Program-made: the position numbers and the translations under genes
Assembly (NCBI GenBank): GCA_016840425.1
Contig: JAEOSI010000052.1
Coordinates: 1-11,455, forward strand
Source: Candidatus Wukongarchaeum yapensis
Lineage (GTDB): Archaea; Asgardarchaeota; Wukongarchaeia; Wukongarchaeales; Wukongarchaeaceae
Length of the DNA: 11,455 bases
Direction of reading: 5' to 3'
The notes under the pieces: generated by a model
The model's database searches: none
Told to the model about the DNA's origin: nothing
What the model saw: only the letters and a program-made list of their open reading frames with translations
In this document: positions 1,573 to 5,909 of the stretch, one piece after another
How the letters are laid out: the number at the start of each line of letters is the position of its first letter
How positions within the stretch are numbered: the first letter of the stretch is position 1

Positions 1573-1794
1573 CCACCAATAAAAAGAAACACCAATAAAC
1601 CAAAAAAGATTGGAAAAATTTTCGATTTTATTCAATGAAAAAATAAAAAGAAAGTATGAGATAAGGAATATTTTGAAAAAAGAGCCCTAAGAAAAGGCAG
1701 AAAAAAGGGGCATTTTTGCCATTAGAATAATTATATCTTAAAGAAAGAGAAGCCGATCCGCTAACCTTAAAAATAAAGAATGGAAAATAAATAT

Positions 1795-1812
1795 TTGGTG
1801 CCTCGGTGGGTC
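1795..1812 (+). other. 5' leader arm of a 16-bp leader-trailer helix enclosing the tRNA-Asp gene
   Basis: TTGGTGCCT (1795-1803) is perfectly complementary to AGGCACCAA (2045-2053). Pairing continues with G1805-G1806/C2043-C2044, G1808-G1810/C2040-C2042, T1811-G2039 (G-U) and C1812-G2038, with C1804 and T1807 bulged. The arm contains GCCTCGGTGG (1800-1809), a copy of tRNA positions 1813-1822. Confidence 0.6.
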
Positions 1813-1819
1813 GCCTCGG

Positions 1820-1848
1820 TGGTGGTAGCATGATGCGCCGCCGGGGAA
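1820..1848 (+). other. tRNA-Asp intron 1 (29 nt, between positions 7/8; equivalently 8/9, since T1820 and T1849 are identical)
   Basis: The central 4-bp helix is C1814-C1817/G1843-G1846 with one G-U. Three-nt bulges G1818-T1820 and A1847-T1849 lie on opposite strands. The inner helix is GGTGG 1821-1825 / CCGCC 1838-1842. The outer helix is essentially absent. Confidence 0.65.
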
Positions 1849-1870
1849 TAGTGTAGCCAGGCCTATCATC

Positions 1871-1898
1871 GCTAACGGTGAAGGATCGTTAGGGAGAG
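1871..1898 (+). other. tRNA-Asp intron 2 (28 nt, between positions 26/27)
   Basis: The inner helix is CTAACG 1872-1877 / CGTTAG 1887-1892. Three-nt bulges at 1869-1871 and 1897-1899 sit in exact BHB register. The central segment 1865-1868/1893-1896 has only two Watson-Crick pairs flanked by A-G juxtapositions. The outer helix 1858-1864/1900-1906 is 7 bp including two G-U. The boundary is uncertain by about 1 nt; C26 versus G26. Confidence 0.6.
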
Positions 1899-1910
1899 TG
1901 GGTCTGTCAC

Positions 1911-1933
1911 AGGAGTAAAAATGCTCCCAGAAG
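1911..1933 (+). other. tRNA-Asp intron 3 (23 nt, between positions 38/39, one nt 3' of the canonical site)
   Basis: The inner helix is GGAG 1912-1915 / CTCC 1924-1927, and the central helix is TCTG 1903-1906 / CAGA 1928-1931. The 3' bulge is AGA 1932-1934 and the outer helix is GGG 1900-1902 / CCC 1935-1937. The 5' bulge is 5 nt (1907-1911), so this is a relaxed BHB. Removal leaves the contiguous anticodon loop CTGTCAC. Confidence 0.6.
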
Positions 1934-1947
1934 ACCCAGGACCCGGG

Positions 1948-1974
1948 ACACATGAGCGGGCGCATGTGCGGGAA
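1948..1974 (+). other. tRNA-Asp intron 4 (27 nt, between positions 53/54 in the T arm)
   Basis: This is a near-textbook BHB. The central helix is CCCG 1942-1945 / CGGG 1969-1972. The 3-nt bulges are GGA 1946-1948 and AAT 1973-1975. The inner helix is CACATG 1949-1954 / CATGTG 1963-1968. The outer helix is short, A1941-T1976 and G1940-C1977. Confidence 0.75.
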
Positions 1975-1989
1975 TTCAAATCCCGGCCG

Positions 1990-2018
1990 AAGGAACTCAA
2001 AAAAGGGTTCCTGCCGAA
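1990..2018 (+). other. tRNA-Asp intron 5 (29 nt, between positions 68/69 in the 3' strand of the acceptor stem)
   Basis: This is a near-textbook BHB. The central helix is CGGC 1984-1987 / GCCG 2013-2016. The 3-nt bulges are CGA 1988-1990 and AAA 2017-2019. The inner helix is AGGAAC 1991-1996 / GTTCCT 2007-2012. The outer pairs are C1982-C1983/G2020-G2021. The predicted cuts recreate CCG|AGGC, the exact complement of GCCTCGG. Confidence 0.75.
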
Positions 2019-2037
2019 AGGCGCTATAAACTTAAAA

Positions 2038-2053
2038 GGCCCCCAGGCACCAA
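2038..2053 (+). other. 3' trailer arm of the leader-trailer helix enclosing tRNA-Asp
   Basis: GGCCCCCAGGCACCAA pairs with 1795-1812 (see the leader-arm feature). It is separated from the tRNA 3' end (G2023) by the 14-nt A/T-rich single strand CTATAAACTTAAAA (2024-2037). Confidence 0.6.
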
Positions 2054-2057
2054 AAAA

Positions 2058-2090: not shown

Positions 2091-2191
2091 GGGCCAATAG
2101 CTCAGCTAGAGCATATTTTAAATCTGTGGCAAAGTAGAGCGTCAGGCTTTTAACCTGATGGTCGGGGGTTCAAATCCCCCTTGGCCCGCCA
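2091..2191 (+). tRNA. tRNA-Lys (anticodon UUU) with an insertion/intron in the D-loop; 3' CCA genomically encoded
   Basis: The acceptor is GGGCCAA (2091-2097) / TTGGCCC (2181-2187), followed by discriminator G2188 and CCA 2189-2191. The anticodon arm is TCAGG-CTTTTAA-CCTGA, with TTT at 2149-2151. The variable loop is TGGTC and the T arm is GGGGG-TTCAAAT-CCCCC. The D-stem strands GCTC (2100-2103) and GAGC (2137-2140) are separated by 33 nt rather than the usual 7-11. Confidence 0.88.
2111..2132 (+). other. Best BHB-register candidate for the tRNA-Lys D-loop intron (22 nt); boundaries unresolved
   Basis: The central helix is GCTA 2105-2108 / TGGC 2127-2130 (4 bp, one G-U). The 3-nt bulges are GAG 2109-2111 and AAA 2131-2133. 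The inner helix is 2112-2117/2121-2126 with one mismatch. Caveat: the resulting D-loop, AGCTAGAAGTA, lacks the conserved G18G19 (the GG at 2128-2129 would be removed). An alternative register, 2106-2132, leaves only a 6-nt D-loop. Confidence 0.35.
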
Positions 2192-2582: not shown

Positions 2583-5500
2583 ATGAGAACTAAAAATGAA
2601 GTGTGGGATATTTTAAATGTAATGTTAAATGATACTGGTTTAGTAAAACAACAACTCGATAGTTTTGATGATTTTATTACTCATGGAATGCAAGAAATAG
2701 TAAAAGAAGTAGGAAAAATAGAACCTGATATAGAGGGCTTTATGATAAGACTCGACAGGATAGAGATAGAAGAACCAAAAATAAGGGAGGCAGATGGAGC
2801 AACTAGACCAATATACCCCATGGAAGCACGAATAAGAAACCTAACTTATGGCGCCCCAGTTTATCTCTACATGACGCCAGTCTATGAACAGAATGGAATA
2901 CAAACACAAGAAGAACAAGTTCGTGTATATATAGGCATGATGCCTATAATGTTGCGTTCAAAAAAATGTATAACCAGTAATATGCCCCCTTCAAAACTTA
3001 TCAAAATAGGAGAAGATCCAAAAGATCCTGGAGGATATTTTATAATAAGTGGAAGTGAAAGGGTTTTAGTCACCCAAGAAGATTTAGCTCCAAATAAAAT
3101 ATTGGTTGAAAATGTGGGAGGAGTAAGTAACATAACAAGCAGGGCAAAAGTTCTTTCTACAGCAGGAGGGGTAAGAACCCCCTTAACCATTGAAAGAAAA
3201 AAAGATGGAACGATAAGCGTAAACGCGCCAGGTTTACCTCAGAAAATCCCATTAATAATCCACCTGAGAGCTTTAGGCCTCGAAACAGATAAAGAAATAA
3301 CCGAAGCGATAGGCCTTAATCCCGATATCCAAAAAGAGCTGCTGCCTTCAATAGAAGAAAGTATGGAAGTATCAGATGGAGAAGAAGCTTTAGATTATAT
3401 AGGGAGAAGGGTAGCAATAGGACAAACACAAGAATATCGAATAAAAAGGGCAGAAAACGTCTTAAACAGGTATCTATTACCACATCTTGGAACTACTAGC
3501 GAAAGCAAGCTAAAAAAAGCTCGATTTATAGGGATCATGACAAGAAGCATAATAGAACTATACCTGGGAATAAGAGAAGAAGACGATAAAGACCACTACT
3601 CCAATAAAAGGCTAAGATTAGCAGGAGACCTATTAAAAATCTTATTCAGAGTAGCATTTAATAGCCTTTGTAGAGACATAAAATATCAGACAGAAAGAGC
3701 GTCAATACGCGGAAAAACACCCAACCTTAAAACAGCAGTAAGAGCAGACGTGATAACAGACAGAATCAGCCACGCTTTGGCAACAGGAAACTGGGTAGGG
3801 GGAAAGACAGGGGTATCACAACTATTAGATAGAACAAACTACATATCAATGTTAAGCCATTTGAGGAGAGTAGTTAGCCCCTTAAGTAGAAACCAACCCC
3901 ACTTCCAAGCAAGAGATCTTCACCCCACACAATGGGGAAAAATATGCCCAAACGAAACACCTGAAGGACCAAATTGTGGACTCGTGAAAAACTTAGCACT
4001 CATGGCACATATAAGTCAAGGAACAGATGAAAAACGAGTATTACAAATACTGGTAGAAAGGGGCATGGAGCCTTTAGAGAGGCTTGAATATCCAGAAGGA
4101 AAAACGTGCGTATACCTAAACGGGACTCTAGTAGGGACACATGAAAAACCAGAACAATTAATAAACGAAATAAGGAAAAGCAGGAGAAGGGAGGAAATAA
4201 GCCAAGAAATAAATATTGCGTATCATCCGAAAGAAAAAGAAGTGATAGTAAACTGCGATTCAGGAAGAGTAAGAAGACCATTAGTAACAATAGAAGATGG
4301 AAAAAACCTCTTAGAAGAAAAACACATAGAGATGATACGAAAAGGAAAACTTCAATGGAAGGACCTTATTGCGAGCGCGATAATAGAATATTTAGACGCT
4401 GAAGAGGAAGAAAATGCATACATAGCTGTCATGCCCAATGAAATAACAAAAGAACACACACACGTAGAAATCTCGCCAGCATTCATATTAGGAGTAAGCG
4501 CATCCTTAATACCATTTGCAGAACATAACCAATCTCCTAGGAACACATACGAAGCAGGAATGGCAAAACAAGCACTAGGATTATACGCACCAAACTACAG
4601 AATAAGGGTAGATACAAGGGCGCACCTACTTCACTACTCCCAAACACCAATCGTAAGAACTCAAACAATAGATCTAATAGGATACGACAAAAGAGCAGCA
4701 GGACAAAACTTCGTAGTCGCAGTTTTAAGTTACGAAGGATACAACATAGAAGACGCATTAGTTATTAATAAAGCAAGTATAGAACGAGGATTAGCAAGAT
4801 CCACATTTTTCAGGACATATGACGCGGAAGAAAGAAAATATCCAGGCGGTCAAGAAGATCGATTCGAGATACCTACCAAAGATATTAGAGGATATAGGAT
4901 ACCTGAAGCCTACAGATACCTGAATGAAGACGGAATAATAGAACCTGAAACAGAAGTAATAGGAGGCATAGTAATTATTGGGAGAACATCACCCCCAAGG
5001 TTCATAGAAGAATATGCAAGGTTTGAAATACCAACACCCAACCGAAGAGAAACAAGCATAACAATGCGTCATGGAGAAAAAGGAGTAGTAGACGCAGTAA
5101 TATTAACGGAAACAAACGAAGGAAACAGGCTATTAAAAGTCAAGATAAGAGACGATAGAAAACCAACCCTTGGAGACAAATTCGCTTCAAGACATGGGCA
5201 AAAAGGAGTAATAGGGCAAATAGCATCGCAAGAAGATATGCCATTTACCGAAGACGGCATAGTACCCGACCTAATAATAAACCCGCATGCTATGCCCTCA
5301 AGGATGACTGTAGGACAACTTATAGAAAGCGCAACAGGAATAGCAGCAGCCATGGAAGGAAAACCAGCAGACGGAACACCCTTCATAGGCATAACCATAA
5401 AAGAGATAGAAAAAACCCTGAAAAAACACGGATACCACCCCGCAGGAGAAACAACACTATACGACGGCATAACAGGGGAAAAATACCCCGCAAGAATATA

Positions 5501-5909
5501 TATGGGAATAGTATATATGCAAAGACTACATCACCTTGTAGCAGACAAAATACATGCAAGGCCAAGGGGCCCTATACAGATACTTACAAGACAACCAACA
5601 GAAGGAAGAGCAAGAGAAGGAGGACTGAGATTTGGAGAAATGGAAAGAGACTGCCTAATAGGCCATGGAGCAGCATTACTATTAAAGGAAAGATTATTGG
5701 AGGGAAGTGATAAAGTAGAGGCACTAATATGTGAAAAATGTGGACTTCTAGCAGTTTATGATAGGAGTAGAGATCGATATTATTGCCCGGTATGTGATAT
5801 AGGGGCAAAAATAGCAAATATAGAAATTAGCTATGCGTTTAAGCTTCTCCTACAAGAACTTATGAGTTTAGGAATAGCGCCTAGACTAAGATTAAAAGAA
5901 AAAGCATGA
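2583..5909 (+). CDS. rpoB: DNA-directed RNA polymerase subunit B (Rpo2), unsplit, 1108 aa
   Basis: Hallmark motifs are GDKFASRHGQKGV and NPHAMPSRMTVGQL, plus the C-terminal Zn ribbon CEKCG...CPVCD. Length and operon position are typical. Confidence 0.97.
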   Translation: MRTKNEVWDILNVMLNDTGLVKQQLDSFDDFITHGMQEIVKEVGKIEPDIEGFMIRLDRIEIEEPKIREADGATRPIYPMEARIRNLTYGAPVYLYMTPVYEQNGIQTQEEQVRVYIGMMPIMLRSKKCITSNMPPSKLIKIGEDPKDPGGYFIISGSERVLVTQEDLAPNKILVENVGGVSNITSRAKVLSTAGGVRTPLTIERKKDGTISVNAPGLPQKIPLIIHLRALGLETDKEITEAIGLNPDIQKELLPSIEESMEVSDGEEALDYIGRRVAIGQTQEYRIKRAENVLNRYLLPHLGTTSESKLKKARFIGIMTRSIIELYLGIREEDDKDHYSNKRLRLAGDLLKILFRVAFNSLCRDIKYQTERASIRGKTPNLKTAVRADVITDRISHALATGNWVGGKTGVSQLLDRTNYISMLSHLRRVVSPLSRNQPHFQARDLHPTQWGKICPNETPEGPNCGLVKNLALMAHISQGTDEKRVLQILVERGMEPLERLEYPEGKTCVYLNGTLVGTHEKPEQLINEIRKSRRREEISQEINIAYHPKEKEVIVNCDSGRVRRPLVTIEDGKNLLEEKHIEMIRKGKLQWKDLIASAIIEYLDAEEEENAYIAVMPNEITKEHTHVEISPAFILGVSASLIPFAEHNQSPRNTYEAGMAKQALGLYAPNYRIRVDTRAHLLHYSQTPIVRTQTIDLIGYDKRAAGQNFVVAVLSYEGYNIEDALVINKASIERGLARSTFFRTYDAEERKYPGGQEDRFEIPTKDIRGYRIPEAYRYLNEDGIIEPETEVIGGIVIIGRTSPPRFIEEYARFEIPTPNRRETSITMRHGEKGVVDAVILTETNEGNRLLKVKIRDDRKPTLGDKFASRHGQKGVIGQIASQEDMPFTEDGIVPDLIINPHAMPSRMTVGQLIESATGIAAAMEGKPADGTPFIGITIKEIEKTLKKHGYHPAGETTLYDGITGEKYPARIYMGIVYMQRLHHLVADKIHARPRGPIQILTRQPTEGRAREGGLRFGEMERDCLIGHGAALLLKERLLEGSDKVEALICEKCGLLAVYDRSRDRYYCPVCDIGAKIANIEISYAFKLLLQELMSLGIAPRLRLKEKA

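Follow-up and report, generated by a model that had tools for sequence, protein, structure and literature searches.

The nearest described relatives of the gene considered here are the interrupted tRNA genes of the Atabeyarchaeia and Freyarchaeia, in whose complete genomes 92-95% of the tRNA genes have introns, often multiple and at non-canonical positions (Valentin-Alvarado et al., 2024, Nat Commun; PMC11291895). With these we compare positions 1813-2023 of an 11,455-nt stretch of DNA from the Asgard archaeon Candidatus Wukongarchaeum yapensis (contig JAEOSI010000052.1, forward strand; the whole stretch is termed the window). Our analysis supports the reading of this region as one colinear tRNA-Asp(GUC) gene with five introns of the bulge-helix-bulge (BHB) type, at tRNA positions 7/8, 26/27, 38/39, 53/54, and 68/69. 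We are fairly confident of the explanation as a whole, namely that this is the tRNA-Asp(GUC) gene of Candidatus Wukongarchaeota, situated at an ancestral tRNA-Asp/tRNA-Lys site upstream of the rpoB operon and matured by the splicing of all five introns.

The Atabeyarchaeia and Freyarchaeia genes resemble the Wukongarchaeota gene in that they come from the same superphylum and have short BHB-type introns at non-canonical positions, with more than half of the tRNA genes carrying several (PMC11291895). Freyarchaeia also have the same tRNA-Asp(GTC)-tRNA-Lys(TTT) tandem, and the tRNA-Asp of the Freyr/Jord group has a 53/54 intron as here. In the published tables, however, the maximum is four introns per gene (for example in Trp-CCA, Arg-TCT, Ile2-CAT, and Leu-GAG; PMC11291895, Supplementary Data 4) and tRNA-Asp has two, whereas the Wukongarchaeota tRNA-Asp gene has five. 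Its introns at 7/8 and 68/69, unlike those of the published genes, flank or split the acceptor stem and, set against those genes, it escapes both ARAGORN and the Rfam tRNA model entirely. A previous sequence-only reading of this DNA had put the maximum for archaeal tRNA genes at three introns, which the four-intron Asgard genes show to be outdated. The same reading called the gene an extreme case of fragmentation, and while the five introns and the 136 intron nucleotides among 211 (64% of the gene) are confirmed, the novelty was overstated as genes of this kind have already been published in Asgard archaea.

In the Thermoproteales there are up to three introns per tRNA gene (Sugahara et al., 2007, 2008; reviewed in PMC4090602), at positions including 3/4, 20/21, 25/26, 45/46, 53/54, and 59/60, and they rely on an (alpha-beta)2 endonuclease of broad specificity (PMC4090602). 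These genes share with the Wukongarchaeota gene the many non-canonical positions and the relaxed hBH and HBh' motifs, but they belong to another phylum (Crenarchaeota), do not exceed three introns, and positions 7/8, 26/27, 38/39, and 68/69 are absent from the (non-exhaustive) list of their intron positions. The Asgard lineages that have been sampled encode an (alpha-beta)2 EndA with a specificity-broadening L1 loop, although Wukongarchaeota were not among them (PMC5829648). Nuclear tRNA genes of the red alga Cyanidioschyzon merolae contain up to three ectopic BHB introns, and RT-PCR revealed that these are removed in order, the more stable BHBs first (Soma et al., 2013; PMC3728597). This is the behavior that we would expect of the Wukongarchaeota gene, yet C. 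merolae is a eukaryote with no more than three introns per gene and with some genes permuted, while the exons described here are colinear. In Nanoarchaeum equitans and Caldivirga maquilingensis, split and tri-split tRNA genes occupy separate loci and their pieces are joined in trans at BHBs. The same endonuclease and ligase are involved and the GC-rich complementary flanks of the pieces recall the leader-trailer helix described below, but the six pieces of the Wukongarchaeota tRNA follow one another over 211 nt of a single transcript.

Full-text literature searches, of non-exhaustive coverage, returned no description of a tRNA gene with five introns or more and nothing on tRNA introns in Wukongarchaeota. 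Five introns are one above the published maximum that we found, and the gene is a record-level case of a phenomenon known from earlier work on Asgard archaea; it represents neither a new mechanism nor a new kind of system. Its significance is that it sets a new upper mark for protein-spliced introns per tRNA gene, in the archaea most closely related to eukaryotes, and that an essential tRNA gene in these archaea can be overlooked by routine tRNA finders. It also offers a natural substrate of about 250 nt in which strict and relaxed BHBs occur together, among them the two that border or interrupt the acceptor stem (7/8, 68/69), and this precursor could be used to probe the specificity and the order of action of the Asgard splicing endonuclease.

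The spliced product and its orthologs

As it stands in the genome the gene is not read as a tRNA by either of the two tools applied. ARAGORN finds no tRNA in the whole unspliced window, and the Rfam tRNA model gives no match at 1813-2023 at its gathering threshold in the window, its only match being to the 3' part of the adjoining tRNA-Lys. The site also lacks a tRNA match at E<=1 in L087, a longer piece of the same contig that is identical to the window across 1797-2051. When the six exon segments of Table 1 (7, 22, 12, 14, 15, and 5 nt) are joined, ARAGORN identifies the resulting 75-mer, GCCTCGGTAGTGTAGCCAGGCCTATCATCTGGGTCTGTCACACCCAGGACCCGGGTTCAAATCCCGGCCGAGGCG, as tRNA-Asp(gtc). Its features are an acceptor stem of 7 bp without mismatch, a D stem of GUGU/UCAU with G10-U25, an anticodon loop CUGUCAC with C38, a variable loop GGAC, a T arm CCGGG-UUCAAAU-CCCGG, and the discriminator G73. 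The sole stem mismatch is a U13-U22 opposition, which is also present in the orthologs. Much of what the sequence-only reading had claimed is therefore borne out by the joined 75-mer: the coordinates and lengths of its six exons are exact, the 3' strand of the acceptor stem is complete only after splicing, the T arm is formed by splicing, the Asp identity features GUC, C38, G73, and G10-U25 are all present, and its expectation that standard finders would overlook the block is true of both ARAGORN and the Rfam tRNA model. It also counted four of the five introns as non-canonical; the siting is as described, but by its own exon ends intron 3 is at 38/39, so that all five are non-canonical.

Table 1. 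Features of the tRNA-Asp locus and other interrupted tRNA genes of the same genome. Positions are those of the window unless preceded by L087; a vertical line within a bulge marks the cut. MFE, minimum free energy.
Feature	Position	Strand	Description
TATA-like box TTAAAAATAAA	1768..1778	+	about 25 nt upstream of leader start; putative archaeal promoter; region invariant in 6/6 variants
5' leader	1794..1812 (predicted transcript from about 1797)	+	17 bp in three blocks with 3' trailer, from MFE fold and pair counts
Exon 1	1813..1819	+	tRNA positions 1-7; acceptor 5' strand GCCTCGG
Intron 1	1820..1848	+	29 nt, 7/8; HBh', central helix CCTC/GGGG (one G-U), bulges GG|T and AA|T, inner helix 6 bp
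Exon 2	1849..1870	+	positions 8-26; D arm with 17a, 20a, 20b; without variable site
Intron 2	1871..1898	+	28 nt, 26/27; relaxed hBHBh', outer helix 7 bp (1858-1864/1900-1906), inner helix 8 bp
Exon 3	1899..1910	+	positions 27-38; anticodon stem 5' strand and loop CTGTCAC, anticodon GTC
Intron 3	1911..1933	+	23 nt, 38/39; relaxed, helix TCTG/CAGA (1903-1906/1928-1931), inner helix 6 bp
Exon 4	1934..1947	+	positions 39-53; anticodon stem 3' strand, variable loop GGAC, T stem 5' strand; without variable site
Intron 4	1948..1974	+	27 nt, 53/54; strict hBHBh', central helix CCCG/CGGG, bulges GG|A and AA|T, inner helix 6 bp
Exon 5	1975..1989	+	positions 54-68; T loop, T stem 3' strand, first 3 nt of acceptor 3' strand; without variable site
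Intron 5	1990..2018	+	29 nt, 68/69, inside acceptor stem; strict hBHBh', central helix CGGC/GCCG, bulges CG|A and AA|A, inner helix 8 bp
Exon 6	2019..2023	+	positions 69-73; AGGC and discriminator G73
3' trailer	2024..2054	+	2024-2037 variable and unpaired; 2038-2054 paired with leader
tRNA-Lys(UUU)	2091..2191	+	encoded CCA; 24-nt D-loop intron 2110-2133; spliced 77-mer called tRNA-Lys(ttt) by ARAGORN
tRNA-Met/Ile2(CAT)	L087:5105-5251		about 4 kb upstream of tRNA-Asp; introns of 41 nt at 32/33 and 32 nt at 38/39 or 39/40

Other explanations for an interrupted tRNA-like block were considered. The six exons are colinear within 1813-2023, which is not the arrangement of a split or a permuted tRNA gene. 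Self-splicing introns of group I or II were rejected, as the introns are only 23-29 nt in length and match no Rfam intron family, nor does any other Rfam family match the gene region in scans of the window and of L087. Within the gene itself the features of a tRNA pseudogene are likewise absent, the stems being intact and the exons having zero substitutions.

Orthologous genes provide a view of the mature tRNA that does not depend on the splicing motifs. In many archaeal lineages, among the loci fetched with RpoB as the query in a genome scan (all <=66% identical), tRNA-Asp is located upstream of rpoB and is usually followed by tRNA-Lys(UUU); the Asp-Lys tandem is found, for example, in L004, L024, and L073. 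The tRNA-Asp genes have no introns in Hydrothermarchaeota (L024, L032) and in a Methanobacteriota metagenome-assembled genome (L073), one at 38/39 in Baldrarchaeota (L002), two at 20b/21 and 38/39 in Borrarchaeota (L004), two at 45/46 and 53/54 in Freyr/Jordarchaeia (L005-L007, L026), and one at 37/38 in the Hod/Thor/Hermod-type loci, with an additional D-loop intron in L012. All of the examined orthologs, whether spliced or intron-less, are 75 nt in length and are called tRNA-Asp by ARAGORN. The Wukongarchaeota 75-mer aligns to six of these 75-nt sequences with zero gaps and with 58-65 identities in 75, and the differences in stems are compensated. Hence the mature sequence, including C26 and C38, is fixed independently of the BHB rule. 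The comparison also dates the introns and so bears on how tRNA introns accumulate. The position of intron 4 (53/54), together with a similar 3' end, is also found in the Freyr/Jordarchaeia tRNA-Asp and, on the loci compared, the introns at 38/39 and 53/54 are common to other Asgard classes while those at 7/8, 26/27, and 68/69 are seen only in the Wukongarchaeota gene.

The orthologs also bear on the register of intron 3, which could be drawn at the canonical position 37/38 (intron 1910-1932) to give the same five-intron gene with the anticodon loop CUGUCAG (G38) rather than CUGUCAC. This is the intron position in the Hod/Thor/Hermod tRNA-Asp, its 3' bulge AA|G would stack directly on an intact anticodon stem (outer helix 5 bp), and its central helix CTGT/CCAG has 3/4 pairs; these are the same three central pairs as in the 38/39 register, and the two differ only by bulge migration. 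Nevertheless, we regard 37/38 as unlikely, as every ortholog, intron-bearing or not, has C38, CTGTCAC is contiguous in the genome, and a 5' cut following C1910 matches the register of the inner helix. Moreover, the Baldr and Borr introns follow C38, with BHB scores of 3/4 and 4/4, respectively, compared with <=2/4 for the neighboring register. The ortholog alignment thus favors intron 3 at 38/39.

Metagenome contigs were also scanned for anticodon-arm and T-arm exons separated by gaps of 0-30 nt, and nothing was matched, not even the known intron-containing form. The same exon-gap pattern does match in the fetched loci, and as the known form was also unmatched, the metagenome collection evidently does not contain the lineage and the scan is uninformative on intron-less copies.

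Conservation among Wukongarchaeota variants

The locus was obtained in eight copies representing six distinct sequences, with matching contigs that include JAUQYV020000036.1 (L083), JAUQYU020000178.1 (L084), JAEORU010000002.1 (L090), and several from ENA/JGI. Exact-sequence queries with the RpoB and RpoA' of the window matched nothing, and the contigs were reached through NusA and cluster members. The RpoB sequences of this close set are 94-100% identical, and the next best, from other Asgard classes, are only about 65% identical, so the lineage is isolated in the databases. Among the six sequences there are 0/75 variable sites in the exons, 19/136 in the introns, and 9/60 in the flanks, plus indels (Fisher exon versus intron p = 2e-4). 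The invariant exon set is bounded exactly by 1813 and 2023, with variation resuming right outside, at 1810-1812 and 2024-2026. Within the introns, the nucleotides of the BHB cores are variable at 1/35 sites compared with 18/101 in the remainder (p = 0.026), and of the nine variable inner-helix pairs, eight are still paired in every sequence. Pairing is maintained in intron 2 through GU to GC or AU and UA to UG changes, in intron 5 through CG to UG and UG to CG changes, and in intron 4 through one compensatory double change, GC to AU, together with two wobble changes. Purifying selection is therefore stronger on the exons than on the introns and helices are maintained, as seen at the limited depth that a set of close relatives affords.

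These data bear directly on whether the locus might be a decaying or non-functional tRNA-Asp relic that is not fully spliced, with a working copy, perhaps with fewer introns, located elsewhere in the genome. Such a relic would be in keeping with the folding calculations presented below, in which the BHB conformers are not those of minimum free energy (MFE) and two are weak. It would not be expected, however, to have 0/75 exon substitutions next to 19/136 in the introns, with exact boundaries and with both BHB cores and helices kept, nor to have intact stems at the conserved syntenic site of archaeal tRNA-Asp, and we consider a relic to be quite improbable.

The bases after G73 (2024-2026) are CCA in L082 and L083, CTA in the window and L088, CCT in L081, and TCA in L089 and L090, and the CCA end is thus not reliably encoded. 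It seems that an encoded CCA is decaying among these close strains.

Splicing motifs and a proposed maturation pathway

The BHB rule was coded such that the four exon nucleotides before the last two of the exon pair with the four intron nucleotides before the last two of the intron, with 3-nt bulges cut after the second nucleotide and an inner helix starting one nucleotide into the intron. A motif was termed strict if it had 4/4 central pairs and an inner helix of >=6 bp. In the region scanned, 1790-2060, there are exactly three strict BHBs, 1819|1820...1848|1849, 1947|1948...1974|1975, and 1989|1990...2018|2019, and these correspond to introns 1, 4, and 5. Dinucleotide shuffles of the region contain a mean of 0.29 strict motifs and reach three or more in 14/1000. 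In the case of intron 2 the central "helix" consists of two Watson-Crick pairs between two A-G oppositions (2/4), although its register is correct, while intron 3 has a canonical 3-nt 3' bulge, AG|A, and a 5' bulge enlarged to 5 nt, with the cut located one nucleotide before the 6-bp inner helix. The sequence-only reading had applied the BHB geometry five times, and in its strict form this holds for introns 1, 4, and 5 (inner helices of 6-8 bp) but only in a relaxed form for introns 2 and 3. That reading also described introns 1-3 as relaxed, which is correct for introns 2 and 3 and is not for intron 1, a strict HBh' motif.

Several observations weigh against the five-intron splicing model. 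Strict BHBs are common by chance, with 20 elsewhere on the + strand of the AT-rich window, and the motif alone is consequently weak evidence; as it is not specific, the evidential weight falls on the product, the orthology, and the pattern of conservation rather than on the number of motifs. In the strict register, no more than 2/4 of the central-helix pairs are standard in intron 2, and the same is true of intron 3. When the BHB conformers were forced in the whole precursor, 0/5 corresponded to the predicted MFE structure, and intermediates with a single intron also have MFE structures without any central helix. Intron 1 has an alternative fold, a continuous 11-bp helix that is locally more stable by 8.8 kcal/mol, into which it can slip because of a GGU-GGU-GG repeat. 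Lastly, the six variants are close relatives with one double change only, which makes the evidence from covariation thin, and the covariation score is often matched by shuffled data and is not significant on its own.

The frequency of strict BHB-like hairpins on the + strand also raises the question of whether the block is a chance resemblance, or some other structured RNA in a GC-rich island from which no tRNA is made. This is effectively refuted by the gap-free match to tRNA-Asp in 75/75 columns with all invariant tRNA features, by the synteny, by the exon-specific conservation, and by the lack of a match to any other Rfam family, and it has next to no plausibility in our view.

For the precursor of 271 nt the MFE is -123.8 kcal/mol (z = -6.9); in this structure the leader is paired with the trailer and each of the five inner hairpins is formed, but no central helix is present. 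Relative to this structure the BHB conformers cost +3.3 kcal/mol for intron 4, +4.0 for intron 5, +5.4 for intron 1, +7.7 for intron 3, and +12.1 for intron 2, which means that the RNA alone does not suffice and that the conformer must be selected by the enzyme. Competition between the mature fold and the BHB fold is usual for introns inside stems. The outer 14 pairs of the leader-trailer helix are invariant among the variants, and the three pairs proximal to the tRNA (1810-1812) are altered in L082, in which 2/3 are no longer paired. This helix was also considered as a BHB of the type seen in the processing of rRNA and permuted tRNA, and was rejected as its bulges are of only 1 nt.

The sequence GCCTCGGTGG occurs twice in tandem, 13 nt apart, at 1800-1809 in the leader and at 1813-1822 across exon 1 and the start of intron 1, and we raise the question of whether these copies reflect a duplication at intron insertion. 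The repeat means that exon 1 could instead be the upstream copy of GCCTCGG, at 1800-1806, with a first intron of 42 nt; either copy would give an identical mature sequence, and weak BHB-like candidates would place a cut after 1805 or after 1807 (H 3/4, inner 3). Only the proximal copy has a strict motif (H 4/4, inner 6), however, and 1800-1809 lies within the leader-trailer helix while 1810-1812 vary freely, as expected of a leader, all of which makes the upstream copy very improbable as the start of the tRNA.

Based on these motifs we propose the following pathway. Transcription from the TATA-like box would yield one precursor of about 250 nt, in which the leader (about 1797-1812) would pair with the trailer (2038-2054). 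The archaeal splicing endonuclease would cut at ten sites in the BHB bulges, each formed by an intron and its upstream exon, and an RNA ligase would join the exons at five junctions. Because introns 2 and 3 both draw on exon 3 nucleotides 1899-1906, their motifs are mutually exclusive, and splicing would therefore be stepwise with refolding between steps. The near-MFE strict motifs of introns 4, 5, and 1 would probably be processed first, with introns 2 and 3 following after refolding. Trimming of the ends and addition of CCA would then lead to the canonical 75-nt tRNA-Asp plus CCA. The splicing of this gene, like its order, is inferred from the DNA sequence.

A more far-reaching proposal, which we judge to be evenly balanced between right and wrong, is that this is the most fragmented cis-encoded tRNA gene described, with five introns and both acceptor strands interrupted, that its maturation is ordered and depends on refolding, that the leader-trailer helix is a clamp holding the six exons, and that hyper-fragmented genes are a general cause of "missing" tRNA annotations in Asgard archaea. 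If it is correct, the conserved helix would clamp the RNA through ten cleavages and five ligations, and genes of this type would explain the absence of tRNA-Asp and other isoacceptors from Asgard annotations. There is no entry for tRNA-Asp in the tables published for the two complete Atabeyarchaeia genomes; the table of Atabeya-1 also has no Ile, and that of Atabeya-2 has only Ile(TAT), which is flagged as a possible pseudogene (PMC11291895, Supplementary Data 4). This suggests that heavily interrupted genes were overlooked in the Atabeyarchaeia tables too. A hidden tRNA-Asp beside tRNA-Lys upstream of rpoH/rpoB was sought in Atabeyarchaeum (L091:3840-5720) and none was found.

Other interrupted tRNA genes and the genomic context

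All 3/3 of the tRNA genes in the approximately 38 kb of the genome that was examined, those for Asp, Lys, and Met, are interrupted at non-canonical sites. No EndA or RtcB was called within the same approximately 38 kb (L083-L090). The tRNA-Lys(UUU) gene adjoining tRNA-Asp is missed by ARAGORN in its unspliced form and aligned by Rfam only at 2128-2187. Its intron has a relaxed BHB with a central helix of 3/4 and an inner helix of 3 bp, and its removal generates the D arm AGCUCAGCUAGGUAGAGC, the same as is read in the Borrarchaeota tRNA-Lys (L004). Application of ARAGORN to enumerated single excisions was far too permissive for locating this intron, and the BHB geometry and the Borrarchaeota D loop were used instead. 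The intron is flanked by the direct repeat TAGAGC. The third gene, tRNA-Met/Ile2(CAT), has no Rfam match even at E<=1 when unspliced (L087), and its spliced 74-mer is called tRNA-Met(cat) by ARAGORN. A 101-nt direct repeat of 96% identity (L087:5158-5258 and L087:5907-6007, the starts 749 bp apart) duplicates the 3' part of this gene, introns included, and from its sequence it looks like a target duplication from an element integrated into the tRNA gene, or possibly an orphan 3' half.

The window has a G+C content of about 35% with a sharp peak of 59% at 1801-2000, and its gene order, all on the + strand, is an unsplit rpoB (2583-5909), rpoA', rpoA'', L30e, NusA, and S12. The spacer between the tRNA genes and rpoB (2200-2582) has no ORF of the size of rpoH, unlike Atabeyarchaeum (L091), where rpoH (PF01191) is immediately upstream of rpoB. 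In Hydrothermarchaeota and a Methanobacteriota metagenome-assembled genome (L024, L025, L032, and L073), a sequence that by eye resembles a 5S rRNA gene 3' end is located immediately before tRNA-Asp/tRNA-Lys, upstream of rpoB, and no such 5S-like sequence was seen before these genes in the Asgard loci that were read. The tRNA-rpoB spacer of one variant (L081:860-1190) is longer by a segment of about 330 bp, which the window lacks.

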